64,000 bases of DNA from an uncultured Candidatus Saccharibacteria bacterium (GCA_964639295.1 CAZXDT010000001.1:245068-309067), one strand, 5' to 3'; positions 25,201 through 63,498 are shown, numbered from the stretch's first letter. Made by a program: numbers and translations. Notes: a model not told the origin generated them from the letters alone.

Positions 25201-26218
25201 CACAGCTTGCACCACTCGTACATATTGTCTGTGACAAAGCACCAGAGTTAGGGAACTGGAATACACGCCCACCAGCCGTAAAGGTAATCATATCTGAGCC
25301 AGCGTTGATATCAATACTGTTACCAGCGCTGGTTTGGGTGAGCTTATTGGCTTTGATTTCGCCACTTGGGCTAACCGTTAAACTGCCGAATTGTACGTTT
25401 GCGTTAGCATCAAGATCTTGAGGTGTACTAAGTGTTAGTACGCCATCGCTAGTGGAAACACTTATCTGGTTAAGTGAGCCTTGGATTGCAACATCCCCTG
25501 CTTGATTATTGAGTGCCGTAACTCCTGCGGCAGGAATGGCGACCTGACTGAGTGCTGTTACTTGGCTTTGCAACTCAGTGAATTGATCATTACCAACATA
25601 ACTACAGTTATTACTGTCCAAACAGATGGTACCTGATGCGTTAGGCAGGCTAAGAGTCTGGTTGGCTGTAGCATCCTGTGTCTTGATAACGGTTACAAAG
25701 CCACCGCTTGAGACCTTAATGCTACCCCTAGTTATGAAGTCACCGTTGACAAGCAGTGACTGATTAGCTCCCTGTAACTCTGTGGGAACGTTTGTATTGT
25801 CAGCATCCTTGAGGAGTACATCTTGTTGCGCCCCAGCGTTTGACTGCTTGTCTTTGTTCGGGCTATTCCTGACGAGGAACAGCATACTCGTACCTGTTAA
25901 AAGTACTACCAACAGTGTGATTGTGGTAGATATAACCATCGCTTTTCGCTTAGAGAACATAAACACGGGGTTTTTCATTCGTGGCGGCTGGACCATTTGG
26001 GTTTGTGGAGCTGACTCGTGAACATCGAGTGTTTCTACGGAGTACGTCTGGGGGCTGGAAGCGTAGAAGCTCACTGTTTGATTATCGTCAACACCGTCAA
26101 GACTAACCCCAGATTGGAGGTTAGATACAGGTACAGTAACCGGTGGTTGGCGATCGTCCATTTTTTTGTGTAATTTGTTTATTTTGCACGCTTTTGTCGC
26201 GTGCTTTGATTTATACAA
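16220..26218 (-). CDS. Giant (about 3313-3332 aa) N-terminally anchored tail-fibre-like protein with two tandem neck plus beta-helix (tailspike-like) modules and a conserved C-terminal domain
   Basis: ORF track. The 26218 start is TTG, only 4 nt after a TATAAT, so ATG at 26161 (MDDRQPP..) is more likely. TM is AMVISTTITLLVVLLTGTSMLFLV. Phage-tail-fibre-like motifs include GGTGANNAGTARTNLG (~24031-24070) and three copies of ANQIxV...TLSTPQ[DN]. Necks sit at ~20270-20385 and ~18505-18620, each followed by a ~300-aa N/G/T/I-rich beta-helix (~19150-20100 and ~17450-18370). The C-terminal ~190 aa are shared with the 2053-aa protein. Confidence 0.9.
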   Translation of the reverse strand: MYKSKHATKACKINKLHKKMDDRQPPVTVPVSNLQSGVSLDGVDDNQTVSFYASSPQTYSVETLDVHESAPQTQMVQPPRMKNPVFMFSKRKAMVISTTITLLVVLLTGTSMLFLVRNSPNKDKQSNAGAQQDVLLKDADNTNVPTELQGANQSLLVNGDFITRGSIKVSSGGFVTVIKTQDATANQTLSLPNASGTICLDSNNCSYVGNDQFTELQSQVTALSQVAIPAAGVTALNNQAGDVAIQGSLNQISVSTSDGVLTLSTPQDLDANANVQFGSLTVSPSGEIKANKLTQTSAGNSIDINAGSDMITFTAGGRVFQFPNSGALSQTICTSGASCAVGGGTAVLLSQPTAQADTDPEASIFINDTGGGHLIRLQSGGVDKLAVANNGDTTVGGSLTVSSLGNGFVKSTGGTMSVVSAIDLSGSDVINTLPVTKGGTGAATLTANGVLVGNGTSALTSVAAGGAGLCLISTAGAPSWQACPGGGAVTSVNGESGALSVVGTANQISVATGSGTLTLSTPQNIHVGAAPTFAGLTLSGLGSGPVRASAGLLGTGNINLGSEVSGLLGVTLGGTGVSTTPSNGQLLIGNGTGYTVATLTAGSGVSITNGGGSITISAPGAGSCATCANQALSNLSGVALNTSLLTGSTTIDLGSNAAPFRDLYLGGTGTNNFRFTGVATGARTITVPDVSGTLAVSASGNIALSAAGNISLTGQVPVANGGTGANNAGTARTNLGAAASGANTDITSLAPSSTLTVGSTGQILTLQGNANTSLAAGSGANITTLGFAAPSGTNTITFPALTGTVCVSTGNCAAAGTAGGDLTGSYPNPTIAKLQGTNLNISGAAGGHVLIYNATNSRWENHAVSSDITLSETGTATIANNAVTTSKIADGNVTNIKLQNSSLTVTAGNGLSGGGAVSLGASTNLAVVYGSSANTAVQGNTAVTISAGTGLSGGSTITLGAGGTSTLNVVYGSTGNTAVQGNTVLNCASGTGNLSGGGNAVTLGAGGTCGNITITNSPVFSGTLEVQGATATIGANSQQGSLVLYDGGTGVASHKGTVQVIGSLGQDTTYILPDPAGATATICLSTNNCVGGGGGGAVGGGGTINKIAKFTAAGTIGDSSLSDSGSTVTATGNVIIQGANSLSLGTSSSFDGSIKFYNAAGTHFVALQAPAADPAADLTFKLPSAYGSNGDCLQSNGAGTLTFTACTGGAGGGVTSLNSQTGVVSIANASGSGGVVTLNDASTAAKGIAQFNATNFSASLGVINTIQNIDSTSAPTFAGLTLSGLNSVGLVKTNGSGTLATGTVSRNDTSYLTGTLDADKGGTGLSSYTTGDLLYASGATTLNKLAAVAAGQCLVSNGVGAAPIWSVCPGGGGSVSSLNTFTGAVTVQGTANQIIVNNNTGVITLSTPQDINTSSTPQFSGLGLTAGLTFSGVTTDITTGSNQDLTLDANGTGKTILSDAVDVAGLLSANGGIQTNNAAIALGSGNLTTTGTITSGLINGQTISSTANFTGTVSIQGANSLSLGTSSSLDGSIAFRNAAGTHTVSLQAPTTDPTSNFSLKLPSAPGSNTDCLKTDASGNLYFGGCAAAGSGVTSLDSLSGALTIANSSGVGSVVTIDDATTAAKGIASFSSSNFAVTSGAVTIKAGGVGSTEIADGSVANVDLQNSSVTVTAGGGLTNGGSVSLGSSTTLDIGAGSGITVNANDVAVDATVCRTSGNCAGVGGTGDVLQGGNTVAATMTIGTNNAFDLGLETNGVTRLTISSTGVATFTGAVSAVSFAGDGASLTNLDASNLASGTVATGRISGSYTGITGVGTVTTGTWQGNTIADAYLQDNISVSSAGVVDWTALNNYPAACPAGQAVTQLGDTITCNVFAAGSGSGNYIQNQSASQQTSSSFWISGTGRSDTSFTAPLFDTPTAVALNIGTTNATAINLNKNVVVAASQSLTITGGNTASRPGSPVEGMLYYDTTTKQLLVYANGKWQADRSTATKIVGTSASGGVSTAIASVGYDGADYVNASTTSAQTVINSALSSMPASGGTVYLMEGTYIIDGAISIPDNVTLTGAGAGTIIKLKNTIGAGAINAITNTTTTSGTSVTVSNLTLDGNKANNASGTEQGIYLNGMGSGTTVQGARLTNLTIKNFRFSGIYLNNTINTTVSNNTIMGNTNDAGIFIDTNSTNDIISNNTLLANAKGIDAENGSTYLTISNNYINGNTTAGIYFTTGAGSAPANSIVTGNTIVNNTTYGMFVAGNTAAYNTFSGNSVTAGTNGIRISGARHNTFTGNSIYDTGGAANNDAFFLTSTNQDNIITGNTISDSSATTTNYAININAGTSNYIANNTLGGGSVNDGGTTTIFNGQVKDEANGNYYIQPAGTIELTKNTNVTGTFSVTSTSSFTGVATIRGVTVDSATATQDRIKVVVAAVGAARFDGTITNADLTAARTWTLPNEDGTICTTGSVCTGYAAGSGSSSYIQNQNAGQQSASNFWISGTGRADTSITTPLIDTPTAALLNIGTTNATGINLNKNVTVAAGQYLRIVGGNTASRPGSPTEGMTYYDTDTKRIMTYSNGKWQADRGDAIYVAASDSSQNDKDAADYVGDGNTGAALDGDQVQINSALTTASGKKVVLLAGTYTIDGSISIPNNTTLSGVGAGTLITIPNALNTNFSAIVNTDTTTGTNVTVQDLRLDGNKSQQATAVGMSGIDFNNMGGGSGTSARPGAKIRNVQSNNWYSGAVATCQLGAGICIRNSNNNTISDNTTEGNATAGIMLISSSHNNITGNTAQGSDNMGIYMSSSSFNTITGNTLQGNTLNGVFLSSSSNNTVTGNTVNTNAANGFSLLSSNNNIISGNAVSDTGGATANNAVSLTTSDGNTITGNNITDTSCTTTCNGLVVTNSTSDNNYFANNGLNGAGISDNGTGTILGSNIMAGGAISGTDATRVLAGQENASGNYQLQPSGTIELMKTTNITGSLTATVNADFEGSLNVGTANAFAVNTSGVVTAGTWNGSTVGVQYGGSGAASFTQYGVLFGNGTSAFGVTAVGSTGQCLISGNGVAAPSWGTCTVSSLQSVYNASSPADITLADNKNISFTAADTTTDPSIIMKLNCTACGTGATGNFLIQNNSAATLFSVAGSGAIQIGSTSNGITLSGSGGTTTGAFTLNGTARNVKTIVLQPEFAGAVLDAAADSSCSSANNGTMTSGFDTASNPRMNNYQWTTTQTSAQCYDVVVQVPIPKDWDGWDTVGDPIKIQMMRTTPGASSAAYGIAIVDSNNTFETNYPSTYTTGTPGTTWADVAAGSLSGNYTTNDWMTIKIRMSGTANSTNYPITFLGNITLRYNSKF

Positions 26219-26251: not shown

Positions 26252-26486
26252 GCCTGGCAAGACATAAATGTGCTCAAGCTCGATAGTGTGTATTCTGACT
26301 ATGTATTGGTAATTTTGCTGTTAATATCATTGTAATATTAGCATCAATTTTATAATTGTATGCTGTTATAACTCTTCAGGTAATTAACAAAGTAGACTAT
26401 GTTTATGAATTATTATAGCTGTATTTATTACTACGGAAATAATGTGAGTATACTTTTTACGAAAAGTTATCCACAAGCACTTTGCA

Positions 26487-51963: not shown

Positions 51964-54900
51964 TTAATGCTTCCAGACATCAGCACGCCATGTTTGTGTG
52001 TCAGCGGTGTTAATGGCAGCTGCACCGATGTTACTGTTTTGGTGACAAGCACGGATAGTGACCGTGTTGGCAGCAGAAACATATGCCATCCAGTCTAGGT
52101 TAACCGTTTCTATTCCTCCTGCAACTGCCGTTGGAGAAGCATATACCGTATCACCTACAGCTGCACCGGTAACAGTAATCGTACCGTAAGCCGCACAGGA
52201 GTTTATGTTGATACTTGCAGAGACTAAATTGGCTGCAGTTGCTGAAAGGTGTTTCAGTATCGCAGTTCCACCGCTACCGATAGTAGCGCTAGTAGTTGAT
52301 ACTGCGGCTAAAGTGGTAGTTCCTGTGACAGTAAGGTTATTGTTTAGATTGGTCACACCCGTAACGGTTAGAGTGGTGCCTACAGATAACGAAGCCAGAG
52401 TAGTGGCTCCTGTCACATTTAATGTACTCCCCAGAGTGGCCGCGCCTGTAGCATTGAAGGTTCCACCCACCGAGAAAGTGAACAACGGATTAGTGTCGTT
52501 AATACCGACATTACCAGAAGCACCCAGGATAGTTATGATATCCGTCCCGGGTGTATTGCTAGCTGCAATATTCGCACGTGTATCCTTACCAATGCTGAAG
52601 TTACCGCTATCATCAAATAAGAATGCAACCTTGGCTGATCCTGCTTTGAGTGAACCAATCTTTCCTGCAACATCGTCAATTATCATTGATGCTCCAGCGG
52701 CTGTTTGTTGTATCAGTACGTTACCGTTAGTCGTAGCAATGTTACCTGTGAATGTAGACGTACCGGTTACGCCCAGGCCAGCATTCAATGTGGTTAGCCC
52801 GCCTACAGTTAACGTCTTTGTGCCTGTAATGCTGGTGTTACCATTTATTGAAACAGCACCGCTACCTGTCTTGAACGTACCGGAAGAAGCACTCTGGTCG
52901 AAGTTACCAACGACCAATGTGCCACTGACCGTCGCGTCGTTGTTAACTGTTAATGCTGTTCCAGCAGCGCTGAAGACGTTGGCAACACTGAAGGTGTTAG
53001 CTTGGTTCTTGTAGGCAACGTTTGTCAGTGTACCCGCAGTGTTAATGTTTGCACCGTTCAACTGTATTGAGCTAGTACCGTTCACATCAGCACCTTGGAC
53101 AGTTCCTGATGCTGTAACACTGGTAAAGCTTGGGGTAGCACTCAGGCCAATAGAGGTACAAGTACCCCCTGCACCGAGTGCGAAGCTGCCACCGCCCCCA
53201 GTTAGATTAGTGCCTGTTACAGCAGCGCAGTTAAACGTCGTGTTACCCTGGACGGCAGTACTTGCAGTAGAACCGTATAGGACACTTATCGTCGGTGTAC
53301 TGCCCTCGCCAGTGTTCCCTGAGGTTGATAGTCCCGTAAGTACCCCAAGAGTTGCTACATAGTTACCTGTCGTCTGAGTACCTAAGGTCACAGCATCTGC
53401 CACAATCTCACCGTTACTGATAGACGTACCAAGAGTGGCCTCGAGCTGGCCAGCGTTAAATTGAAGGCCCGTACCTGTTAGGTCACTAAATGCTTCTCCA
53501 TTAAGAGTCAACGTCTTGGTAGCCCCGATCGTTATACCATTACTCGCAGTAATCAGGCCAGCAGCAGTAAGTGTCCCTGTAAAGTTGGCTGAACTACTTA
53601 TTGTCTGTCCGTTTACGAGTCCGGTCGTGACATCCCCGTTAGTAGCCACCTGGAAGGCATCTGCCGTGCCTGCTTTAAAGCCAGCGGACACATCAAGCGC
53701 ACCGGTGATATTAGTACTATCCTGCAGCTCTATTGTGGAACCAGCATTAATGATCACCTGATCGATGCTGTTAAGCGTAATGTCGTTGCCAGCCCCTGTA
53801 CTATTGATTGTAATAGCACCTGTTGCCGTAAGATCCCCTATATTTGTCAGATTACCGCTGTTATCGATGCGTGTTGTAGAGTTTGTCTGTAGCCCACCGC
53901 CGGTTGTATTGATGTTACCAGATCCACTGTAAGTAGTACCGCCAGATATGGCACCATTGAGTGTAATACTCGTAGCACCGCTGATTGCACCAGTATTTGT
54001 TATACCGCCGCTGTTATTGTTGAATCCGCCACTGATCGATGCACCACCAGAGGCAACTGTGAGACCGGTAAGGCCAGTGAGTGTGCCAGCGATTGTGCTG
54101 TTGCCTGTTACTCCAATACCCCCAGTGGTGACCGTTAGGCCTGTTCCAGCGGTAATAACACCTTCTACATTCAATCCTGCAACCTGGCTGCCGTTAGAGT
54201 TAGTGATACTCAACGTAGTACCTCCACCCGCATTCAAGAGATCTAAGACAGTTGTCCCAGCTGCACTACGCTGTAATGTAGATGCATTTAAGATAATGTT
54301 TCCTGACCCACTGGTGAGTGTTAGGTCGTTTGCTCCGGTGGTAGAAACAGTTAGTGCACCGGCATTCGTCAGAAGTGGTGTACGCACTGCGGTAGTAAAG
54401 CTCACGTCATTATTTGTAGAGATCGCACCACAAGTGCCACCTGATCCTAAGGTGATTGCATTACCACCTCCGCTGAGATTACCTGAACCACTAGCACATG
54501 TCAGAGATACGTTACCCTGAACTGCCGTGCTTGCAGCTGATCCGTAGAGAACACTTAATGTAGGCGTAGAGCCTTCACCCGTATTACCGGATGTAGAGAG
54601 ACCGGTTAGGGAGCCAAGCGTAGCCACGTAGTTGCCAGTTGTCTGTGTGCCAAGAGTCACGGCATCGGTTCCAATTTCTCCGTTGGTAATAGAAGTACCC
54701 AGGGTAGCCTCGAGCTGACCTGCGTTGAACTGAAGACCGGTGCCTGTTAGATCAGTGAATGCTTCACCGTTAAGAGTGAACGCCTTTGTAGCACCAACGG
54801 TTAGACCATTATTAGCAGTAATAAGTCCCGCAGCTACTAGTGTGCCTGTAAAGTTAGCACTGCTAGAAATAGTCTGTCCGTTTACGAGTCCGCTCGTGAT

Positions 54901-57900
54901 ATCCCCGTTGGTAGCAACCTGGAAAGCATCAGCAGTGCCGGCTTTGAACCCAGCAGATATGTCGAGTGCACCAGTGATGTTTGTATTGTCTTGAAGCTCA
55001 ATAGTTGAACCAGCATCAATAATCACCTGGTCGATACTGTTTAGCGTAATATCATTACCAGCACCTGTACTATTTATTACCAATGCACCACTAGCCGTTA
55101 GGTTGCCTATATTAGTCAGGTTACCACTGTTATCCACGCGAGTAGTAGAGTTAGTCTGCAATCCACCACCAGTTGTATTGATGTTACCAGAACCACTGTA
55201 CGTAGTACCTCCAGAGATGGCGCCGCTTAATGTAACACTTGTGGCGCCGCTTACAGCACCGGCGTTGGTGATACCACCACTGTTGTTGTTGAGGCCACCG
55301 GAGATTGAGGCGCCGCCAGCAGTAACCGTCAGTCCTGTACCAGAGGCTATAGTGCCTTCAACACTGAGGTTGGCTACCCTTGTTCCGTCGCTGTTAGTGA
55401 TAGCAAGTGTTGTAGCTGCAGAAGCATCCAGAAGGTCAATAGAATATGTACCTGCCGCACTTCGGCGAAGTGTTGTATCATTTGCAGCGATGTTGGTCAC
55501 ATTACTGGCACTATCGAGTGTCAAATCAGCTGTTCCACCGCTACTCAGTGTTACCGCTCCAGAACCGGTGAATGTGCCTGATGTAACAGAGGTAAATGAT
55601 GGTGTTGTACTAATTGCAATATTGCCACAAGTGCCCCCGGATCCAAGGGTGATTGTGTTGCCACCGCCGCTTAGATTTCCCGTGCCAGTTGCACAAGTTA
55701 TTTGTACATTACCTTGTACGGCTGTGTTCGTTGTTGATCCATAACTAACCGCTAGACTTGTTGAGCCACCTGAGCCAAGTGTCAGAGTGCCACCACCGCT
55801 TAAGCCATTACCAGCAGTAACGATAATCTGGGTATTACCCTGCACGGCGGTATTTGCCACTGCACCGTAGAGAACTGCAAGTGTTGGGTTAGTACCTTCA
55901 CCAGTATTACCACTTGTTGAAAGACCAGTGAGAGTACCCAAGTTAGCTACATAATCACCAGTAGTATCCGTTCCAAGAGCCACGCTATTTGTATTTACAG
56001 TAAAGCCACCGCTAAATGTTCCACTGATATCACCGACAGCTGGTGATTCACCGACGTTAACATAAGCGCTATCAAGATTAGTACCGAAGTTTGATGTTGT
56101 TAGCACAGTACCGCTTGTGCCTGAGAATGTATATGTTGCGGGGGCGCCACTTGGGGTAGCAATTGCAAAAGTTGCATCATTGGTGCCCTTCTCAAATTTA
56201 AGGTCACCATTCTCCATAATACGAACCACTTCGCTACCTGCAGTGTTAAAGATAATATCGTCCGCACCTGCAGTAGCAGTAGTACCAACAGTTATAGGCC
56301 CTGTGCTCTGTAATAAAGGAGTAGTCACTGATGTACTAAAGCTAACTGCATTATTAGTTGAGATAGCGCCACAAGTACCACCGGCACCAAGGGTGATAGT
56401 ATTGCCCCCGCCCGTTAAGTTACCGCTGCCGCTCGCACAAGTAACAGTTGTATTACCCTGCACGGCGCTGCCGGCAGCTGAACCATACTGGACCGTAAGG
56501 GTTGTATTCCCACCAAGCGCTACGCTACCACCGCCAGAAAGGCCTGTGCCTGCGTTTACGCTTATGCTGCTGTTCTGTAGTGCTGCATTGGCCAAAGTAG
56601 TAGTTCCGGCTGCTGTGAGGCGTCCCTGAGCGTCTACGCTAAAGGTTGGAACTGCAGTGGAAGAGCCATAGGTAGCTGCAGTGACTGTGGTATTCGCAAG
56701 GTTAAATGTGGTTGTACCACCAGTACCAAGAGTGATAGTACCTCCACCTGATAATCCTGTACCTGCTGTAAAGGTTGCCTGCGTGTTACCTTGTACCGCA
56801 GTGTTTGCGCCTGAACCGTAGAGTACACCAAGAGTCGGTGTTGAACCTTCACCTGTATTACCTGTAGTCGAAAGACCAGTCAATGTACCCAAAGTCGCGA
56901 TATAGTTACCGGTCGTTTGGCTTCCAAGACTTACTGCATCAGCATCGATTTCACCGTTAGAGATGGAGGTGCCAAGTGTAGCAGCAATAGTTACGCTTCC
57001 CGCTCCGTTGCCGATATTAATACCACCACCAGCGCTTAAAGTTGCCATCGTAAATCCACTACCGTTGCCAATAAGCAGTTGACCATTTGCTGCAGTAGAA
57101 GTATCAAGGCCAGTACCGCCCCTATTGTTGGTTAGAGCACCGGATGTTATCTGATTCGCATTAATTGAGATTGCAGCAGTGCTCGCAGCAGTGAGGCGCC
57201 CCTGAGCGTCTACGCTAAAGGTCGCTACACTACTTGCGCTGCCGTAATTTCCGGCTGTCACTGTAGTATTTGCCAAGTTCAAGGTAGTACCACTACCGAG
57301 CGCTGTAGACCCACCTCCTGTTAGACCCGTGCCAGCGGTAACAGTTACTGAACTATTGACGAGCTTTGTATTAGTAATTGATGCGTCTGCGATTCGTGCA
57401 ATGTTGAGAGTACCGGAAGCATTGGCTAAGTCTAAGTAGTACGCTCCATTTTGGCCACCCAGGAGGCTTGCATTTACATTAGTAACAAGTGATCCATCAA
57501 GTGCCGGGAGGAGACCACCGGCTGTGGTCTGGACAAGCTGTGACACACCATTAAAGGTATTGCCGGCCAATGTAACATTATTGCTCAAACGAGCATCACT
57601 CAAGGTGTTAGTCGCATTAGCTAAGTTAAGATAATATGAACCAGCCTGGCCACCTAAAAGGGCCGCATCAACATTGGTCAGCGCACTACCATTCAATGCT
57701 GGTAAGGCACCACCAGCAGTTAACTTAACTAACTGACTTGATCCGTTAAACGTATTTCCTTGTAGGGTCACATTGCTGCTGAGACGAGCATCAGCTAAGC
57801 TACCCGTAGCGTTTGTAAGGTCGTTGTAGTAGCTGCCGCTCTGACCATTTAGAGTTGCAGTGTTAACATTTGTTAAGCTAGCCCCTGAACCTGAGAAACT

Positions 57901-60900
57901 AGTGGCGGTAACACTACCCCCAAGTAATTGGAGGTCTTTGCCATTATCAATTTGAACAGCTGAGCCATTCTGGGCAAGCCATGAACTTCCCAGACTCTGG
58001 GTGCCTGTATACAGAGGAATTCTACTCGTAGTCCCTGATCCAGTAATTGTCCCCGCTGCACCACCATCATCGTTGTCACATACTATTTGACCACTTGAGT
58101 TAACTGTTAGGACGCCGCCATTATCATAGCCAGTACAGTCAAATCCGTTCAATACTACGTTCCCTGTTGCACTCAGTACCAAGTCACTTGCTACCCCTGT
58201 TGCTGATACTGTCAGGTTACCATTGTTCGTAAGGAGTGGTGAACTTACGGAAGTGCCGAATGTTGGGTTAGCCGTTGTGTTAAGCGTTACGCTACCACCT
58301 GAACCCAAGGTAACAGAGCCTCCACCAGAGAGATTTGTGCCAGCTGTAACAGTAATACTTGTGTTTCCTTGCACTGCTGTATTTGCTGTAGAACCGTAAG
58401 CTACCGCTAGACTCGTTGAACCACCGAGAGATGGAGTACCACCACCGGTTAAGCCGTTACCAGCTGTTACAGTAATAGAACTGTTTTGGAGCTTGGAGTT
58501 AGTTATAGTCCCGTCAGCGATGCGTGCAATGCTTAACGTACCGGTAGCATTCCCAACATCAAGGTAGTATGCTCCGTTTTGTCCAGCTAGAGTACTTGCA
58601 TTGACCCCAGTTAACTGCGAACCATCAAGTGCTGGAAGCAATCCACCAGCCGTAAGCTTGACCAATTGGCTTGCTCCATTAAACGTGTTGCCAGAAAGCG
58701 TTACGTTACTGCTTAGGCGGGCGTCACCGAGGGTATTTGTTGCGTTTGTAAGGTCGAGATAATAAGAGCCACTTTGTCCTCCGAGTAACGTCGCGTTTAC
58801 GTTTGTAACCAGCGAACCATTAAGAGCTGGCAAAAAGCCCGCTGCAGTCGCCTGTACCAGCTGAGAGTTACCATTAAAGGTATTACCCGCCACTGTAACG
58901 TTACCGCTGAGGCGAGCATCCGCAAGAGTGCCGGTGGCATTCGTAAGGTTCAAGTAGTAGGCTGCGGTTTGTCCACTTAGTAGAGTTGCATCAACATTGG
59001 TCAGCGCACTACCATTTAGTGCTGGCAATGCACCTCCTGCGGTTAGCTGGACAAGCTGGCTTGCTCCATTAAAGGTGTTCCCCTGTAATGTCACATTGCT
59101 ACTCAAGCGAGCATCACTAAGAGATCCAGTCGCATTAGCCAAATTGCTGTAGTAACTACCGTTTTGGCCGTTTAGAGTTGCTGCATTAACGTTTGTAAGT
59201 CCCGAGCCAGATCCAGAGAATGTCGTAGCAGTCACCGTGCCGTTAACAATCAAGTTTCCACCGAGGAGCTGCAGGTCTTTACCACTATCCAGCTCCATGA
59301 CAGAACCGTTTTGTAGCCACCATGAGTTTGAGATAGTAGAACCACTAGAGAACAATGCTAAGCGATTTGCTGAACCTGCTCCTGAGATTGCACCACCTGC
59401 TCCACCATCATCGTCACTACAACTAAGTACGCCACCTACCCCCACTGTCAATACACCGCCATTAAGGTTGCCAGAACAGTCGAAGCCACTGAGTACTATC
59501 TGATCTGCACTGTTCAAGGTAATATCGTTCCCGGCACCCGTACTTGAAAGGGTGATTCCTCCGTTGTTAGTAATTAGAGGCGTTGTGACGGACGTACCAA
59601 AGTTAACGGCAGCAGCAGTTGTGATCGCATTACAGCTCCCACCAGCTCCAAGGGTGATCGTATTTCCACCCCCAGTAAGGTTGCCCGTACCACTCGCACA
59701 AGTAACAGATGTATTACCTTGCACTGCAGTGTTTGCAGATGATCCATATATAACTGCCAGGCTAGTTGAACCACCGAGGCTTACAGTATTTCCACCAGAG
59801 AGGCCGTTCCCTGCAGTAACTCCTATGGTGCTATTCTGAAGCGCTGCATTTGCCAGAGTTGTCGTAGTAGCTGCGGTTAGTCGTCCCTGTGCATCTACTG
59901 TAAAGGTAGGAACAGCAGTTGCAGAGCCATAACCAGCTGCCGTAACAGAGGTGTTTGCAAGGTTAAGTGCTACTGAACCACCAGTACCTAAGGTGATAGT
60001 CCCGCCGCCGCCTAGACCCGTGCCAGCTGTTACAGTGATTTGGGTATTACCCTGAACGGCGGTGTTCGCTGATGATCCATATAATACAGACAATGTTGGT
60101 GTAGCGCCCTCACCACTGTTACCTGTAGTACTCAGTCCGGTAAGTACACCAAGTGCTGACATATATGCACCTGTAGTATCAGCACCAAGCGATACAGTAT
60201 TCGCACCTATTGTAGTAACACCAGATCCATTAACGGTTAGGTCGCCAGACAAGGCAGTACTAACCCAACTGGTGCCATTTGCTACCAATAAATTGCCTGT
60301 TGTAGGAATTGTAACACCTAAATTGTTTCCATTTATTTTTACAACGTTAGGATTTGGATATGTTCCAGAAAGATCTCCGCCGGCTGATCCGCCAGGAGCT
60401 ACCCCTGTTATCGTTGTGTTAGATACACCAGTTACACGTCCTTTGGCATCAACAGTGAGTACAGGTACCTGTGTACCACTCCCGTAGGTTGCAGCAACTA
60501 CCCCTGATGAACCTAAGGTTAACACGCCCGCTGCAGTTAAACTAGCATCCCCTGTTAACGTTGTAAATGTTGGTGTTCCGGAAGCATTTGCTAAGACCAA
60601 CTGACCTGATACACCTGCTGTTGTCGTCTGTACAGCACCAGTACCATTACCGAATAGTAGACCGTTAGTCGCAAACGCAGTATTACCAGTACCACCGTAC
60701 TGGACTCCTATGGTTGAACCCTGCCATACACCACTTGTAAGTGTTCCCACTGCAGTAATATTAGCTAGGTTCCCTGTTGTTATGAGGGTACCACTAGTGT
60801 TAGGCACCGTTAGAGTACGGCTCGTACCACTTGCTATGCCTGATAGTTCAAAGAATGCCTTCTTCGTAGCATCAACGTTATCTTGTAGTGATAGGCCGTT

Positions 60901-62295
60901 ATCAGTGAAGCTCCAGTTACCGGTGATGATCTCTGTTGCAGTGCGTCTTGTTATGCCGGAGTTGGTGTAGTCTAGAGCGATTGCTGCTTGGTTAAACCCG
61001 TCATCTGTGACATCAAAGTCATTACCGTTGAAATCGTAAGCAGCTGGGGTGGTCAGTATTGTGGTACCGCTCTCTTTAGCGGCCACTGTCCCACCCGACG
61101 TATCAGAGGCACAGCCCCATTCACTACCACTCCACTTGAGTATGTCACTTGTACTACAACCCCCAAGAAGCCTAATACCTTCAGGGCTCAATTCCATTCC
61201 AGAGGTAGAAGACGTGGTTGTTGTTGTGCCGGAGCTTGCTAGACGTAGTTCGATAGCATCACCTACAACCATTGTCCCGGTTGCAGTGTTAACACTGAGT
61301 GAAATAGAGCCCGTTGTACCGCCTCCACCAAGCCCGAGACCTGCAACTATGTCGGTTATGTCTGCGCCGGGTCCAGCGGGTCCCTGAGGGCCCACAGGGC
61401 CCTGTGGACCTGTTGCACTACTCAGGTCAACTGATCCACCATTCTTAACCATTGCTTGGAGCTCTGGTGACAGGTGGTCAAATGTAATAGCACCATTTGC
61501 TATATCAACAGACTGAACATTACCATCCTTAATCTGTTTACTAGTAATAGGTACTATGGCGAGATTACCTGGCTCTTGACCGGCAGTGTATCCCTGGAGA
61601 TTAATAGCTCCGCTCTGGGCAGCTCCATTGCGGTCAGCGTCGGAACTACTCCTGTTAAACACGCTACTAAGATTAGGAGAAAGGCCCATGCTTAAGATGG
61701 CATACACACCAAAAGTAATGGCTAACATATAAAAGCCAACTCTCCACGGGCTAAATGGCATGTGTAACGTTGGCGTAGCAAGCGAACCAGACTGATCTTG
61801 TTCGAGGAGTTCGAGTGTTTCCACCTCTTGTTCTAGGAAGGATTCTTTGTCTTTGGCAGTGTTTTTCTCTATAGAAGATTCGAATACATTAGGAGCTTTT
61901 TGGGGAGTAGGAACGTGTATTTGACCCAAAAGTGCTGCGCTCGTTGCATAGGACTCAACCATGGCACGGTCATATAAGCGCTTGCCTTTTGCACTACGGT
62001 TAGCAGGTAACTTACCTTCTGAATCAAGCCTACGAACGGTTGATGACGACACTCCCAGAAGCTTTGCTACCTCTGTTGATGAAAGCGGTTGCGTAGATCG
62101 AAATGCTTCTAGTTCAGCAATAGAGAAGTGACGGTTTTTACCATCCAATCGTTCTGCTCGGAGTGTGCCAGCCTTTTCCCAACGTCGTACAGTATCAATA
62201 GAAACACCCAAGAATACGGCCGCATCACCTATAGTAACGTGCTGTTTGTTCTCATCAGTACTGATAGTACCTTTGGTACTCAAACTTTTTGACAT
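51964..62295 (-). CDS. Giant (3443 aa) protein: two N-terminal HTH (excisionase/MerR-like) domains, a single TM helix, and a ~3240-aa tail-fibre-like extracellular region
   Basis: ORF track, ATG start. HTH copies are at aa 20-65 and 71-116 (nt 62238-61948). TM is WRVGFYMLAITFGVYAILSMGL (61743-61681). Collagen-like GPQGPVGPQGPAGPG lies at 61410-61366. There are nine LxVxYGSxxxTAVQGN units, two blocks of 64-aa repeats and a 2 x 420-aa tandem repeat. Confidence 0.9.
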   Translation of the reverse strand: MSKSLSTKGTISTDENKQHVTIGDAAVFLGVSIDTVRRWEKAGTLRAERLDGKNRHFSIAELEAFRSTQPLSSTEVAKLLGVSSSTVRRLDSEGKLPANRSAKGKRLYDRAMVESYATSAALLGQIHVPTPQKAPNVFESSIEKNTAKDKESFLEQEVETLELLEQDQSGSLATPTLHMPFSPWRVGFYMLAITFGVYAILSMGLSPNLSSVFNRSSSDADRNGAAQSGAINLQGYTAGQEPGNLAIVPITSKQIKDGNVQSVDIANGAITFDHLSPELQAMVKNGGSVDLSSATGPQGPVGPQGPAGPGADITDIVAGLGLGGGGTTGSISLSVNTATGTMVVGDAIELRLASSGTTTTTSSTSGMELSPEGIRLLGGCSTSDILKWSGSEWGCASDTSGGTVAAKESGTTILTTPAAYDFNGNDFDVTDDGFNQAAIALDYTNSGITRRTATEIITGNWSFTDNGLSLQDNVDATKKAFFELSGIASGTSRTLTVPNTSGTLITTGNLANITAVGTLTSGVWQGSTIGVQYGGTGNTAFATNGLLFGNGTGAVQTTTAGVSGQLVLANASGTPTFTTLTGDASLTAAGVLTLGSSGVVAATYGSGTQVPVLTVDAKGRVTGVSNTTITGVAPGGSAGGDLSGTYPNPNVVKINGNNLGVTIPTTGNLLVANGTSWVSTALSGDLTVNGSGVTTIGANTVSLGADTTGAYMSALGVLTGLSTTGNSGEGATPTLSVLYGSSANTAVQGNTQITVTAGTGLGGGGTITLGTGGSVALNLANTSVTAAGYGSATAVPTFTVDAQGRLTAATTTTLANAALQNSTIGVTAGNGLSGGNTVSLGGSTSLAVIYGSSANTAVQGNTSVTCASGTGNLTGGGNTITLGAGGSCNAITTAAAVNFGTSVTTPLITNNGGITLSSTGAGNDITLNSADQIVLSGFDCSGNLNGGVLTVGVGGVLSCSDDDGGAGGAISGAGSANRLALFSSGSTISNSWWLQNGSVMELDSGKDLQLLGGNLIVNGTVTATTFSGSGSGLTNVNAATLNGQNGSYYSNLANATGSLSDARLSSNVTLQGNTFNGASQLVQLTAGGALPALNGSALTNVDATLLSGQTAAYYLNLTNATGTLADARLSGNVTVAGNTFNGNSQLVQATAAGFLPALNGSLVTNVNATLLGGQSGSYYLDLTNATNTLGDARLSSNVTLSGNTFNGASQLVKLTAGGLLPALDGSQLTGVNASTLAGQNGAYYLDVGNATGTLSIARIADGTITNSKLQNSSITVTAGNGLTGGGTPSLGGSTSLAVAYGSTANTAVQGNTSITVTAGTNLSGGGSVTLGSGGSVTLNTTANPTFGTSVSSPLLTNNGNLTVSATGVASDLVLSATGNVVLNGFDCTGYDNGGVLTVNSSGQIVCDNDDGGAAGTITGSGTTSRIPLYTGTQSLGSSWLAQNGSAVQIDNGKDLQLLGGSVTATSFSGSGASLTNVNTATLNGQSGSYYNDLTNATGSLADARLSSNVTLQGNTFNGSSQLVKLTAGGALPALNGSALTNVDAALLGGQAGSYYLNLANATNTLSDARLSNNVTLAGNTFNGVSQLVQTTAGGLLPALDGSLVTNVNASLLGGQNGAYYLDLANASGTLNIARIADASITNTKLVNSSVTVTAGTGLTGGGSTALGSGTTLNLANTTVTAGNYGSASSVATFSVDAQGRLTAASTAAISINANQITSGALTNNRGGTGLDTSTAANGQLLIGNGSGFTMATLSAGGGINIGNGAGSVTIAATLGTSISNGEIDADAVSLGSQTTGNYIATLGTLTGLSTTGNTGEGSTPTLGVLYGSGANTAVQGNTQATFTAGTGLSGGGTITLGTGGTTTFNLANTTVTAATYGSSTAVPTFSVDAQGRLTAAGTTTLANAALQNSSISVNAGTGLSGGGSVALGGNTTLTVQYGSAAGSAVQGNTTVTCASGSGNLTGGGNTITLGAGGTCGAISTNNAVSFSTSVTTPLLQSTGPITVGTTATAGADDIIFNTAGSEVVRIMENGDLKFEKGTNDATFAIATPSGAPATYTFSGTSGTVLTTSNFGTNLDSAYVNVGESPAVGDISGTFSGGFTVNTNSVALGTDTTGDYVANLGTLTGLSTSGNTGEGTNPTLAVLYGAVANTAVQGNTQIIVTAGNGLSGGGTLTLGSGGSTSLAVSYGSTTNTAVQGNVQITCATGTGNLSGGGNTITLGSGGTCGNIAISTTPSFTSVTSGTFTGSGAVTLSSGGTADLTLDSASNVTNIAANDTTLRRSAAGTYSIDLLDASAATTLAITNSDGTRVANLSVEGTIASGTGLTVTAGGASISGGLNNNSGGITNAGAVSGATSVTLSGAISGGTTYSGSGNINTTGGGLQTNSTTRVDNSGNLTNIGNLTASGALVINSTGAGNDITLNSIDQVIIDAGSTIELQDNTNITGALDISAGFKAGTADAFQVATNGDITSGLVNGQTISSSANFTGTLVAAGLITANNGLTVGATKAFTLNGEAFTDLTGTGLQFNAGQLEATLGTSITNGEIGTDAVTLGTQTTGNYVATLGSLTGLSTSGNTGEGSTPTLSVLYGSAASTAVQGNVSLTCASGSGNLSGGGNAITLGSGGTCGAISTNNDVSFTTAVRTPLLTNAGALTVSTTGANDLTLTSGSGNIILNASTLQRSAAGTTVLDLLNAGGGTTLSITNSNGSQVAGLNVEGVITAGTGLTVTTGGIGVTGNSTIAGTLTGLTGLTVASGGASISGGFNNNSGGITNTGAISGATSITLNGAISGGTTYSGSGNINTTGGGLQTNSTTRIDNSGNLTNIGDLTATGAITINSTGAGNDITLNSIDQVIINAGSTIELQDSTNITGALDVSAGFKAGTADAFQVATNGDVTTGLVNGQTISSSANFTGTLTAAGLITASNGITIGATKTLTLNGEAFSDLTGTGLQFNAGQLEATLGTSISNGEIVADAVTLGTQTTGNYVATLGVLTGLSTSGNTGEGSTPTISVLYGSTASTAVQGNTTFNCAAVTGTNLTGGGGSFALGAGGTCTSIGLSATPSFTSVTASGTVQGADVNGTSSIQLNGANINTAGTLTNVAYKNQANTFSVANVFSAAGTALTVNNDATVSGTLVVGNFDQSASSGTFKTGSGAVSINGNTSITGTKTLTVGGLTTLNAGLGVTGTSTFTGNIATTNGNVLIQQTAAGASMIIDDVAGKIGSLKAGSAKVAFLFDDSGNFSIGKDTRANIAASNTPGTDIITILGASGNVGINDTNPLFTFSVGGTFNATGAATLGSTLNVTGATTLASLSVGTTLTVTGVTNLNNNLTVTGTTTLAAVSTTSATIGSGGTAILKHLSATAANLVSASININSCAAYGTITVTGAAVGDTVYASPTAVAGGIETVNLDWMAYVSAANTVTIRACHQNSNIGAAAINTADTQTWRADVWKH
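53240..55760 (-). repeat. Tandem duplication, 2 x ~1.26 kb (~420 aa), inside the 3443-aa gene
   Basis: The units are ~54500-55760 and ~53240-54500. Long collinear protein identity runs through GGASISGG[LF]NNNSGGITN...TTYSGSGNINTTGGGLQTNSTTR[VI]DNSGNLTNIG...LQFNAGQLEATLGTSI[ST]NGEI...LTGLSTSGNTGEGSTPT[LI]SVLYGS. The DNA copies differ at many third-codon positions. Confidence 0.85.
57400..59185 (-). repeat. Two blocks (57400-57875 and 58520-59185) of ~64-aa (192-bp) tail-fibre-like repeats, ~3.5 units each, within a ~1.3-kb super-repeat
   Basis: The unit is GQxGxYYL[DN]LxNATxTLxDARLSxNVTLxGNTFNGxSQLVxLTAGGxLPALxGSxLTxVNAxxL. Each block is preceded by a GFDC[ST]G...C.[DN]DDGGA segment. Confidence 0.85.
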
Positions 62296-62486
62296 TCTCT
62301 ACCCTGTTATTGTTTCGTTCCAGCTCATCTCACACGATGTTATGAAAGCTTATGCATAGTTTAGTACGCATGCTAATGCTTATACAAGGGACCTATGCAA
62401 AAATTGTATTCATAAGGGTTAGACCGATTAAGTAACAGGGTTATAACTGTAGTGCTAACCAGTCATTGTGAGTAATTTCAGCCGGG

Positions 62487-62495
62487 TTATCCACA
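62487..62495 (+). promoter_or_regulatory. Perfect DnaA-box consensus 9-mer (TTATCCACA) upstream of the 3443-aa gene
   Basis: Exact TTATCCACA lies 192 nt upstream of the ATG at 62295. A second exact copy is at 26467-26475, upstream of the 3332-aa gene. Confidence 0.4.
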
Positions 62496-62525
62496 GACAC
62501 ACCATAAAATAGGTATTCAGCTGAT

Positions 62526-62598
62526 ATTGAACACTTTATAGAGTCTTTCATCCATAGATTGAACACCTTCTTTGAAAGATAATCTAGGTATTGAACAC
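62526..62598 (+). promoter_or_regulatory. Three direct ATTGAACAC repeats phased at exactly 32 bp
   Basis: Copies are at 62526-62534, 62558-62566 and 62590-62598, in the divergent intergenic region between the 3443-aa gene and the HIT gene. Confidence 0.6.
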
Positions 62599-62604
62599 AA
62601 GCAG

Positions 62605-62663
62605 CGTGAAAAGTATTCCATACCTGTCGTGAAATGTTTCTTTAGTTAGTCGTGAAATGTATT
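62605..62663 (+). promoter_or_regulatory. Three direct CGTGAAA[AT]GT[AT]T[TC] repeats phased at exactly 23 bp
   Basis: Copies are at 62605-62617, 62628-62640 and 62651-62663. The last two share the 12-mer GTCGTGAAATGT. Confidence 0.6.
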
Positions 62664-62679
62664 CTGCACACGTAGTTTA

Positions 62680-62729
62680 TATACCATATGTGAGATGTAC
62701 GCAGTTTCTATCACCTCATATATGGTATA
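62680..62729. promoter_or_regulatory. 15-bp inverted repeat (14/15 match) with a 20-bp spacer, upstream of the HIT gene
   Basis: TATACCATATGTGAG (62680-62694) pairs with CTCATATATGGTATA (62715-62729). A third TATATGGTA copy lies at 62761-62769, 5 nt before the ATG at 62774. Confidence 0.55.
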
Positions 62730-62773
62730 CAAATCAGAGTAGATATTGTACGACGTACCCTATATGGTAAGCT

Positions 62774-63289
62774 ATGGATATGAAGAGCCCTTGTGAAGTA
62801 TGTGAAATACTGCCGAATATCGAACCAAGGTTCACAATTATTGATACCCCCAACTGGAATGTGAACCTCCGGGAGACTGACCAAACCCTGCTTGGTACCT
62901 GTTACATTACCGCAAAACGCCATGTACCAGAGGTAGATGAGCTAACTCCAGATGAGGATTTAGATTTCATAGTTGTCAGAAATAGCCTTATTAAGGCTAT
63001 TAGAGCCAGTTTTAGCCCCATCACTATTAATACCTCATGTCTTAAAAATAATGCCTTTAAAGATAACCCAGACAACACATTAACAGAGGCGGGGCATGTA
63101 CACTGGCATGTAAAACCTAGGTACACAACGAGCCCGCAGATACTAAATGGAGAGGTGTTTACAGACCCTATGCCCGGTGAATATTTAGAGCTGTCTCGTA
63201 TCCAACGTCATGTCCCCTCTCCTGAGACAGCACTACAGATAGCTTCACTGATCAGGAGTAATTTGCCGGAATACCCTCCTCAGGTGTGA
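62774..63289 (+). CDS. HIT-family (histidine triad) protein
   Basis: 171 aa with the histidine triad HVHWHVKPR and an N-terminal CxxC. Confidence 0.8.
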   Translation: MDMKSPCEVCEILPNIEPRFTIIDTPNWNVNLRETDQTLLGTCYITAKRHVPEVDELTPDEDLDFIVVRNSLIKAIRASFSPITINTSCLKNNAFKDNPDNTLTEAGHVHWHVKPRYTTSPQILNGEVFTDPMPGEYLELSRIQRHVPSPETALQIASLIRSNLPEYPPQV

Positions 63290-63350: not shown

Positions 63351-63381
63351 AAAAAGAGAGTCCTTTTTGGACTCTCTTTTT
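63351..63381 (+). terminator. Intrinsic terminator of the HIT gene
   Basis: Stem GAGAGTCC (63356-63363) / GGACTCTC (63369-63376) followed by TTTTT. Confidence 0.7.
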
Positions 63382-63454: not shown

Positions 63455-63491
63455 CAGAAAAAGATAAAAGCCATCCTATTCGGATGGCTTT
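63455..63491 (-). terminator. Intrinsic terminator downstream of the 5S rRNA (end of the rRNA operon)
   Basis: 10-bp stem AAAGCCATCC (63467-63476) / GGATGGCTTT (63482-63491), followed on the minus strand by a U-rich tract. Confidence 0.6.
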
Positions 63492-63498
63492 TATATAA

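Follow-up and report, generated by a model that had tools for sequence, protein, structure and literature searches.

Xis and Cox proteins bind phased direct repeats cooperatively and bend the DNA, beside an inverted-repeat core. In pap-type control regions, sites about three helical turns apart serve a cooperative protein such as Lrp, and in fim short inverted repeats flank the promoter. Candidate-phyla bacteria have few regulators and live attached to host cells, and to our knowledge almost nothing is known about gene regulation in Saccharimonadia or in other candidate-phyla bacteria. In Streptomyces, BldC is a monomer whose sites are direct repeats arranged head to tail in variable number; it occupies them cooperatively, at two protomers per 22 bp, and distorts the DNA (PMC5859096). 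Here we describe a locus in which two arrays of direct repeats lie between the divergent genes of a giant surface protein and a HIT-family protein, a sharply defined and testable candidate control region of the giant surface protein for which promoter predictions and site-by-site conservation can be given.

The window, by which we mean the whole 64-kb stretch of DNA that was analysed, is from a Saccharimonadia (candidate-phyla radiation) chromosome, and both the HIT protein and the spacer DNA have their nearest named relatives among Saccharimonadales/Saccharimonadia assemblies. To the right of the HIT gene lie 5S and 23S rRNA genes on the minus strand. The features of the locus are as follows, from left to right.

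51964-62295, minus strand: giant gene, encoding a 3443-aa surface protein.
61939-62244, minus strand: coding region of the tandem winged helix, aa 18-119 of the 3443-aa giant protein.
62296-62773: divergent spacer of 478 bp between the giant gene (left) and the HIT gene (right).
62300-62410, minus strand: near-invariant block with 0.87-0.98 pairwise identity.
62301-09 / 62433-41: long-range inverted repeat ACCCTGTTA / TAACAGGGT, which encloses P1.
62350-62359 and 62393-62402: TATGCATA-type sites flanking P1.
62387-62382 and 62363-62358, minus strand: predicted promoter P1, with -35 TTGTAT (62387-62382), an 18-nt spacer and -10 TAAACT (62363-62358), then ATGCATAAGCTTTCA.
62486-62495, plus strand: DnaA-box-like site GTTATCCACA, with a perfect TTATCCACA at 62487-62495.
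62526-34, 62558-66 and 62590-98, plus strand: A array of three ATTGAACAC sites at an exact 32/32-bp spacing.
62605-16, 62628-39 and 62651-62, plus strand: B array of three CGTGAAAWGTWT sites at 23/23-bp spacing.
62680-62694 / 62715-62729: inverted repeat (dyad) TATACCATATGTGAG / CTCATATATGGTATA, whose core 15-mers match at 14/15 positions.
62743-62754, plus strand: conserved box ATATTGTACGAC, with 0.90 identity and present in the orthologue L012 despite its missing HIT gene.
62765-62773, plus strand: putative extended -10 of HIT, TGgTAAGCT, overlapped by the TATATGGTA copy at 62761.
62780-63289, plus strand: HIT-family gene, with the second ATG as its conserved start (Pfam HIT at gathering score, 33 homologues, start alignment).

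All A and B copies lie in the same orientation, on the plus strand. We use TTGAACAC and CGTGAAAAGT as shorthand for the A and B cores, respectively. The inverted repeat extends to 22-nt arms (62676-62697 / 62712-62733) with 86% complementarity and has a conserved 20-nt centre, and copies of TATATGGTA are found at 62719 and 62761. The motif coordinates given in a preliminary description of this DNA all proved correct on recheck, except for one slip of 1 nt; the last TATATGGTA copy, placed there 5 nt before the ATG, ends 4 nt before the ATG at 62774 and 10 nt before the conserved ATG at 62780.

The repeats are real, and none of them is a chance pattern. An equally spaced triple of any 8- or 9-mer was found in 0/5000 dinucleotide shuffles of the spacer and a triple of 7-mers in 0.06% of them, while an inverted repeat matching at 14/15 positions came up in 1/300 shuffles. 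Outside the spacer, the 64 kb hold zero further mismatch-free copies of the ATTGAACAC and CGTGAAAWGTWT motifs, and a short-word BLAST of the spacer against the remaining window gave nothing beyond chance. The lone perfect TTATCCACA is unremarkable by itself, with 18 matches at ≤1 mismatch in the window versus 16.6 expected; its conservation is what counts. TRF detected only the 23-nt array (period 23, 2.6 copies, 78% matches) and missed the 32-nt array because only a 9-10-nt core repeats there. Several familiar identities were considered: the A sites or dyad arms were rejected as promoter hexamers, the partner hexamers being absent or unconserved, and of parS half-sites (CGTGAAA), NrdR boxes (32-bp pairs), LexA and CRP, none matches the full consensus.

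Orthologous spacers were gathered via HIT homologues, exact-protein look-ups and two pattern scans. Scanning with a pattern of the near-invariant block gave one match in genome contigs (JALRHH010000001.1), one in metagenome contigs and zero in a collection of viral contigs, so that few sequences were gained. Eight distinct orthologous spacers were obtained (the window, L004, L005, L006, L007, L008, L012 and L014), the L013 spacer being nearly identical to that of L007 and counted with it. The gene order in all of them is giant gene, spacer, HIT where present, and 5S/23S; L012 has lost HIT and kept the spacer. HIT homologues of ≤60% identity are found in other contexts with short upstream regions, and this, together with the retention of the spacer in L012 without HIT, places the large spacer with the giant gene. 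A literature search on giant or HTH proteins of Saccharibacteria returned nothing relevant.

In six orthologous spacers the motif cores have a pairwise identity of 0.87-0.89 as opposed to 0.49-0.54 for the remaining columns, and random placement of equal-sized blocks reached the observed core conservation in 0/10000 trials. This test is an independent one because the motifs were defined on the window alone. Looking at individual sites, core identity is 0.90, 0.83 and 0.56 for A sites 1-3, compared to ~0.49 for spacers, and 1.00, 0.92 and 0.91 for B sites 1-3. Clade A shows no change in the right arm of the inverted repeat, and identity over the whole block (62688-62727) is 0.89-0.95. The DnaA-like box is present in 8/8 orthologous spacers and also in the distant homologue L021; it takes the forms TTATCCACA, TTATGCACA or TTATACACA in the orthologues, variable only at the N of TTATNCACA (C, G or A). 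Among the 20 loci retrieved, the B motif and the box occur in syntenic spacers only.

The phasing of the sites is kept as well. A sites are 32 bp apart in all six clade-A orthologues and 31 bp apart in L008, and B spacing in the orthologues is 22-24 bp. Measured along the region in six orthologues, the distances are 40 nt from the box to A1, 32 nt from A to A, 14-16 nt from the last A to B1, 22-24 nt from B to B, 29 nt from B3 to the left dyad arm, 35 nt from the left to the right dyad arm, 30 nt from the right dyad arm to ATTGTACGAC, and 35 nt from ATTGTACGAC to the HIT ATG. Neutral DNA that has diverged this far, near saturation, should carry indels, yet there are none here, which points to a constraint on spacing. 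The only sizeable indels between orthologues are losses of whole 32-nt and 23-nt units: the third A unit is absent as a whole 32-nt unit from L005, L007 and L008, and the middle B unit as a whole 23-nt unit from L005 and L007, with copy numbers of 3 or 2 for the A and B arrays among orthologues. The order of sites in L008 alternates A-B-A-B. L012 has one B site only, and a perfect (TACT)9 microsatellite replaces its A array. The A and B arrays are a clade-specific addition, since L021 is without both and keeps only the promoter block and the DnaA-like box. The preliminary description had named missing conservation of the repeats in orthologous regions as a ground for refuting its reading; the motifs are in fact kept in the eight orthologous spacers. 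Taken together, conserved cores, variable spacers, kept phasing and copy changes by whole units support the view that the motifs behave as discrete functional sites.

Conservation at the locus is highest in non-coding DNA. The block at 62300-62410, absent from the preliminary description, ranks highest, and both it and the dyad block are more conserved than the coding flanks (0.6-0.88). From this block we infer a sigma70-type promoter of the giant gene, P1, with a start at ~62351 and a leader of ~56 nt. L008, L012 and L021 have unrelated promoter-spacer sequences and yet share TTGnnT, a spacer of 17/18 nt, TAnACT and, without variation, TATGCATAAGCTTTC; in L021, TTATCCACAGA lies directly upstream of its -35. 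On the other side of the spacer, most HIT orthologues, the non-syntenic L016 and L018 among them, have TGn followed by TAnnnT 6-7 nt upstream of the conserved ATG, and the HIT mRNA is probably leaderless and read from this extended -10 promoter. It is possible that TTGTAC (62747-62752), inside the ATATTGTACGAC box, serves as its -35. The copy of TATATGGTA near the HIT ATG, counted as a third one in the preliminary description, is indeed present and overlaps the -10 of the predicted leaderless promoter. Since a generic (stricter) sigma70 scan called no promoter in the spacer, both promoters rest on comparative evidence.

P1 is also enclosed by the long-range inverted repeat, which is kept in clade A with its right arm fixed 40 nt from site 2. 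On the minus strand its proximal arm holds a Shine-Dalgarno-like AGGGU before the ATG, and comparable inverted repeats of 12-23 nt flank the promoter of L021. The repeat around P1 and its counterparts in L021 fit either an invertible promoter or a helix that sequesters the Shine-Dalgarno sequence, and both are taken up below.

We consider it probable, from comparison of the sequences, that the repeats are protein-binding regulatory sites. The giant gene would be read leftwards from a sigma70-type P1 within the block at 62300-62410 and HIT rightwards, as a leaderless mRNA, from the extended -10 at 62765-62773, with the motifs occupying the stretch between both promoters as separate protein-binding sites. 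These would be one DnaA-box-like site, 2-3 A sites three helical turns apart, 2-3 B sites 22-24 bp apart, and a 15-bp dyad with a conserved centre. On these sites, upstream of both promoters, a protein complex may assemble cooperatively, bend the DNA and set promoter activity, and the whole region could then be read as a rigid protein-DNA assembly platform. If the winged helices of the giant protein sit on the array, there would be feedback on the protein's own promoter and coupled control of HIT. For this statement taken as a whole, a divergent control region whose sites nucleate a complex with the giant-protein winged helix as binder, we would put the chances for and against as about even. 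The repeats had previously been called operator arrays, and this name is apt insofar as they are discrete, phased and conserved putative binding sites. It does not suit them in the sense of promoter-overlapping operators, as the arrays are upstream of both promoters, ~175-310 bp from the predicted giant-gene start and ~120-255 bp from the HIT start.

The presence of HTH domains at the 5′ end of the adjacent giant gene, which the preliminary description had noted, was borne out by the finding of two MerR/excisionase-type winged helices (Pfam MerR 5.7e-19 and HTH_17 1e-14, two stretches each). They are followed by a predicted membrane helix at ~aa 185-205 and then by collagen-like repeats. The N-terminal winged-helix domains are nearly invariant in 9 orthologues, and the putative recognition helices SIDTVRRWEK and SSSTVRRLD are conserved in orthologues; L021 has 58% identity in the N-terminal domains. 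Top matches in a PDB sequence search were BldC (6AMK, 6AMA), RacA, Pukovnik Xis (4J2N), MerR and P2 Cox (4LHF). An AlphaFold model (AF2) of the N-terminal domains has a pLDDT of 78.6, and its single-domain Foldseek matches include BldC (rmsd 1.3 Å, 50 residues), Xis (1.7 Å, 54 residues) and RacA (2.2 Å, 56 residues). Whole-model alignments of the N-terminal region also bring up TraN (4P0Z), which we take to be a single-chain tandem of BldC/Xis-like winged-helix domains. At least 306 protein clusters begin with this N-terminal module, and many of these proteins are 1,500-5,000 aa long. A word-based search with the N-terminus gave 10 relatives only, all short.

Next to the spacer, no candidate regulator is encoded apart from the giant protein, and the most likely candidate binder of the same-orientation repeats is its tandem BldC/Xis-type winged helix. 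The A and B motifs are found nowhere else in the window, and B and the box only in syntenic spacers, which fits a locally acting binder; the A-B-A-B alternation in L008 is what a two-domain module reading a composite site would lead one to expect. On the other hand, the site spacing is 23 and 32 bp versus contiguous 9-11 bp in BldC and Xis filaments, and at a 23-bp spacing the B sites are not on one helix face. L012 and L021 have the same recognition helices as their array-bearing relatives. Because L021 keeps these without the arrays, the arrays cannot be the sole or ancestral target of the domain family, and with the arrays missing in L012 and L021 and the domains kept, the deeply conserved candidate targets would be the TATGCATA start-point site and the DnaA-like box. 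Binding of the A/B arrays by the domains of the giant protein itself is a tentative proposal, and one that we would sooner doubt than accept.

A more far-reaching and speculative version, which we think rather unlikely, is that the giant fibre protein is both a membrane-tethered regulator and a tether, of a new type, its winged helices polymerising on the A/B repeats, the box and the TATGCATA sites. If true, the locus beside the rRNA operon would be kept at the membrane, the state of the extracellular fibre, be it its assembly or its contact with a host, would be coupled to transcription of the fibre gene and HIT, and the same logic would be common to hundreds of related giant proteins in uncultivated bacteria. 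Should the domain bind the sites, this would be a new link of a cell-surface fibre to transcription or chromosome positioning; should it not, the locus would still be a clean case of conserved, helically phased regulatory architecture in an uncultivated lineage.

The sites could also be occupied by trans-encoded factors, with DnaA at the TTATNCACA box and perhaps at TTWTGCAWA sites flanking P1, and other small regulators or nucleoid proteins at A, B and the dyad. One copy of TTWTGCAWA, 1-2 mismatches from TTATNCACA, overlaps the P1 start at 62350, a second lies on the opposite strand (62394-62402), and in orthologues there is one following B3. The one variable position of the conserved box is the degenerate position of the DnaA consensus, and the 478 bp hold 5 box matches with ≤2 mismatches versus ~1.3 expected (a uniform-composition estimate), and one of these, unchanged in every orthologue, overlaps the predicted start of P1. 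A perfect box is found a second time at 26467, upstream of another giant gene. The arrays being dispensable in L012 and L021, though the winged-helix domains there are unchanged, would also be in keeping with factors encoded elsewhere. However, the lack of A and B motifs in the other 62 kb speaks against a global regulator, just one of the boxes makes a good DnaA site, and the giant protein is the only candidate regulator encoded beside the spacer. We regard occupation by trans-encoded factors as a serious contender, albeit an unlikely one.

Less likely than a protein-DNA platform are readings of the region as an RNA leader, an invertible switch or a replication origin. For the motifs to act in RNA, a distal promoter near the dyad would have to give the giant gene a ~370-nt leader in which ACCCUGUUA pairs with UAACAGGGU and hides the ribosome-binding site, the repeats binding an RNA-binding factor. 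The stretch 62290-62446 does fold better than shuffles on both strands (z = -2.5 and -3.1, with 0/200 shuffles as good), and clade A preserves the 9-bp long-range helix, three of its G-C pairs having become G-U on the minus strand; its proximal arm holds the AGGGU that precedes the ATG. The covariation term from RNAalifold, though, is +0.95 and gives no support, the helix is missing in clade B, and a good promoter, P1, lies within the supposed leader. There is no Rfam match either: at gathering score the whole window gave only 5S/23S, and at E ≤ 10 the spacer gave only microRNA noise. Moreover, variable segments of exact constant length are typical of DNA helical phasing and not of RNA loops. 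The dyad itself shows four two-sided changes in L008 that preserve its symmetry, and one-sided changes in clade A that, depending on the position, would allow a wobble pair on the plus or on the minus strand, a pattern that a symmetric protein site would explain at least as well as a hairpin. The evidence favours DNA-level sites over RNA, and we find action in RNA improbable. Small ORFs were considered for the spacer and rejected, as the 28-codon frame of the block does not stay in one frame in L008, and losses of 32- and 23-nt units break any frame across the arrays.

A phase-variation switch is, in our estimation, just as improbable. A site-specific recombinase would flip the stretch 62310-62432 with P1, which lies between the 9-bp inverted repeats, and the phased repeats would be sites for Xis/RDF-like accessory factors. 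Inverted repeats at 62301-09 and 62433-41 do flank a promoter upstream of a giant surface-protein gene, the 12-23-nt inverted repeats of L021 likewise flank its promoter, and the candidate binder is of an excisionase-type fold. Microsatellite tracts are a known route to phase variation, and the perfect (TACT)9 of L012 is in the same region. Nevertheless, no recombinase was found among the scanned ORFs of the window, the orientation is the same in 12/12 independent assemblies with no inverted copy found, and the inverted repeat is missing in L008.

As a DnaA-dependent chromosomal element, the locus would be a replication origin or a DnaA-titrating locus, and the repeats initiator or accessory sites. 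The conserved DnaA-type box together with weaker box-like sites, a rigid spacing as in origins, and the adjacent rRNA operon would all suit this, and cumulative GC skew falls over the entire window, which would place an origin at or beyond the right end; skew is negative up to the window end, with little sequence to the right in which a switch could be seen. Against it, the spacer has a single box with ≤1 mismatch, the four others having 2 mismatches, and it is 37% GC with a lowest 30-mer of 23%, giving no distinct AT-rich unwinding element. Pfam DnaA was not found among the scanned ORFs of the window. In all orthologues the 5S/23S operon to the right is on the minus strand and is transcribed towards the spacer, so that a rightward fork would run into it head-on; ~85% of the genes in the window are on this same minus strand, which suggests an origin further right. 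We see little prospect for an origin at this locus, even less than for an RNA leader or a switch.

Finally, that the repeats are neutral remnants of tandem duplication or chance similarity is very hard to credit and appears already contradicted by the conservation data, for although TRF calls the 23-nt array an imperfect tandem repeat and unit number varies among orthologues, the units are alike only in their 9-12-nt cores and otherwise unrelated, these cores are at 0.87 versus 0.49 in genomes whose flanking proteins are 61-76% identical, and such phasing occurs in 0/5000 shuffles.

With the region read as a platform of protein-binding sites, its likeness to known systems can be set out. It resembles oriC and dnaA-autoregulation promoters in its perfect TTATCCACA, variable only at the N of TTATNCACA, and in the weaker box-like site on the predicted P1 start. 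Unlike oriC, it has just one strong box and no unwinding element, dnaA was not found in the ORFs scanned, and the rRNA orientation speaks against an origin. Plasmid iterons are direct repeats of ~22-23 bp, as is the B array, but here there is no rep gene, the cores of 9-12 nt repeat (12 nt in B) and not units of 17-22 bp, and the setting is the chromosomal core with housekeeping and rRNA neighbours and two repeat families of different periods. An identity as plasmid iterons fails, as tandem 17-22-bp units next to a Rep initiator gene were not found.

The pap and fim control regions of E. coli share with this locus a divergent spacer of ~400-500 bp upstream of a surface-structure gene. They differ in that here the 478-bp spacer has no GATC, no Lrp or recombinase gene was seen, there is no sign of switching, and the motifs are unrelated. 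In a classical MerR operator a dyad lies in an overlong -35/-10 spacer of 19-20 bp, whereas the P1 spacer is only 17-18 bp and its partial dyad is lost in L014, L008 and L012; the giant-protein domains are also missing the coiled-coil part of MerR regulators. The membrane-tethered one-component regulators ToxR and CadC likewise join a cytoplasmic DNA-binding domain to a membrane helix and offer a parallel for possible action on a neighbouring promoter, but have OmpR-type domains and small periplasmic sensors where here the external part is a giant collagen-like fibre. RacA, a chromosome anchor, is among the best sequence and fold matches, and unlike the giant protein is soluble and binds GC-rich dyads near the origin.

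Closer in kind are the Xis/Cox arrays (lambda X1-X1.5-X2, Pukovnik Xis 4J2N, P2 Cox 4LHF), where winged-helix monomers of the same fold class are at work. Here, however, there is no integrase or mobile element, synteny beside the rRNA operon is stable in all relatives, and the spacing is much wider. The BldC operators at the Streptomyces whiI and smeA-ssfA promoters are also direct repeats of the same orientation, their number varying by target as it does here by orthologue, and the candidate binder is, like BldC, a MerR-like winged helix without a coiled coil (34% identity and 1.3 Å rmsd, for one domain). BldC sites abut and have the consensus AATTN4C (PMC5859096), while the cores TTGAACAC and CGTGAAAAGT are 32 and 22-24 bp apart. 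With its 68 aa, BldC is a free protein, whereas the tandem domains here are fused to a membrane helix and a 3,200-aa extracellular part, and their binding is predicted. Phased transcription-factor arrays are a known kind of element, and the novelty here lies in their being paired with a giant, membrane-anchored protein of tandem BldC/Xis-like domains.

The strongest conservation in the entire locus (0.87-0.98) falls in the roughly 110 nt that adjoin the ATG of the giant gene, window positions 62300-62410. This block likely holds a sigma70-type promoter for the giant gene, which lies among the following features:

62300-62410, minus strand, inside this block: putative giant-gene promoter, TTGTAT, 18 nt, TAAACT, then the invariant ATGCATAAGCTTTCA
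62350-62359; 62393-62402; and, in orthologues, after B3 (the last site of the B array): three occurrences of the motif TTWTGCAWA
62301-62309 / 62433-62441: 9-bp inverted repeat whose arms enclose the promoter block

Both promoter elements and ATGCATAAGCTTTCA are retained even in a distant homologue. The TTWTGCAWA occurrences, which differ from the DnaA consensus by 1-2 mismatches, include an 8-bp palindrome, TATGCATA, that covers the inferred transcription start. The giant gene's Shine-Dalgarno-like AGGGT falls within the proximal arm of the inverted repeat, and the repeat could serve as an invertible switch or form an RNA helix that hides the ribosome-binding site. Searches for covariation and for inverted copies found neither.

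At the other end of the spacer, in 62765-62782, the conserved start codon of the HIT gene is the second ATG (62780), and a TGn plus TAnnnT element lies 6-7 nt ahead of it. Because this distance is so short, the HIT mRNA is probably leaderless; the same arrangement of element and ATG is seen in HIT genes of two unrelated contexts, L016 and L018. Between HIT and the 5S rRNA are two strong hairpins that resemble terminators:

63351-63381: symmetric hairpin, which could terminate in both directions
63464-63494: second hairpin

Perfect TTATCCACA has only one other copy in the window (within 26450-26475), upstream of the giant gene at 16220-26218, with flanks (AGTTATCCACAAGC) identical to those of the box in L012, a relative with an orthologous spacer. 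On the other strand, at a distance of 5 nt from this copy, is a B-like CGTAAAAAGTAT. At 62742-62756, the conserved box GATATTGTACGACGT of the spacer agrees at 14 of 15 positions with the opposite strand of 62182-62196, where the first winged-helix domain has the codons for its DTVRR recognition helix, but with a BLAST E of 5.6 this match is probably due to chance.

In L012 the HIT gene has been lost, and the position of the A array is occupied by a microsatellite:

JALRHH010000001.1, 3187-3222: perfect (TACT)9 tract

Tracts of this kind are a recognised source of phase variation. Both the dyad-centre motif (CTATGCAGTTTCTATCA) and GAAAGCTTTTGCATAG occur a second time in L012, at 3700-3960, within a non-coding stretch of about 1 kb that separates the spacer from the 5S rRNA.

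Three further giant ORFs are present in the window:

4668-26218, minus strand: ORFs of 2053, 1640 and 3332 aa

The first 300 residues of each had no match in a Pfam scan, and these ORFs therefore lack the N-terminal winged-helix module. The giant protein itself (51964-62295; N-terminus 61651-62295) belongs to a large uncharacterised family with at least 306 cluster representatives (E <= 1e-10), many of them 1,500-5,145 aa long and some with 4-9 copies of the winged-helix domain, whose N-terminal tandem winged helices are BldC/Xis-like.
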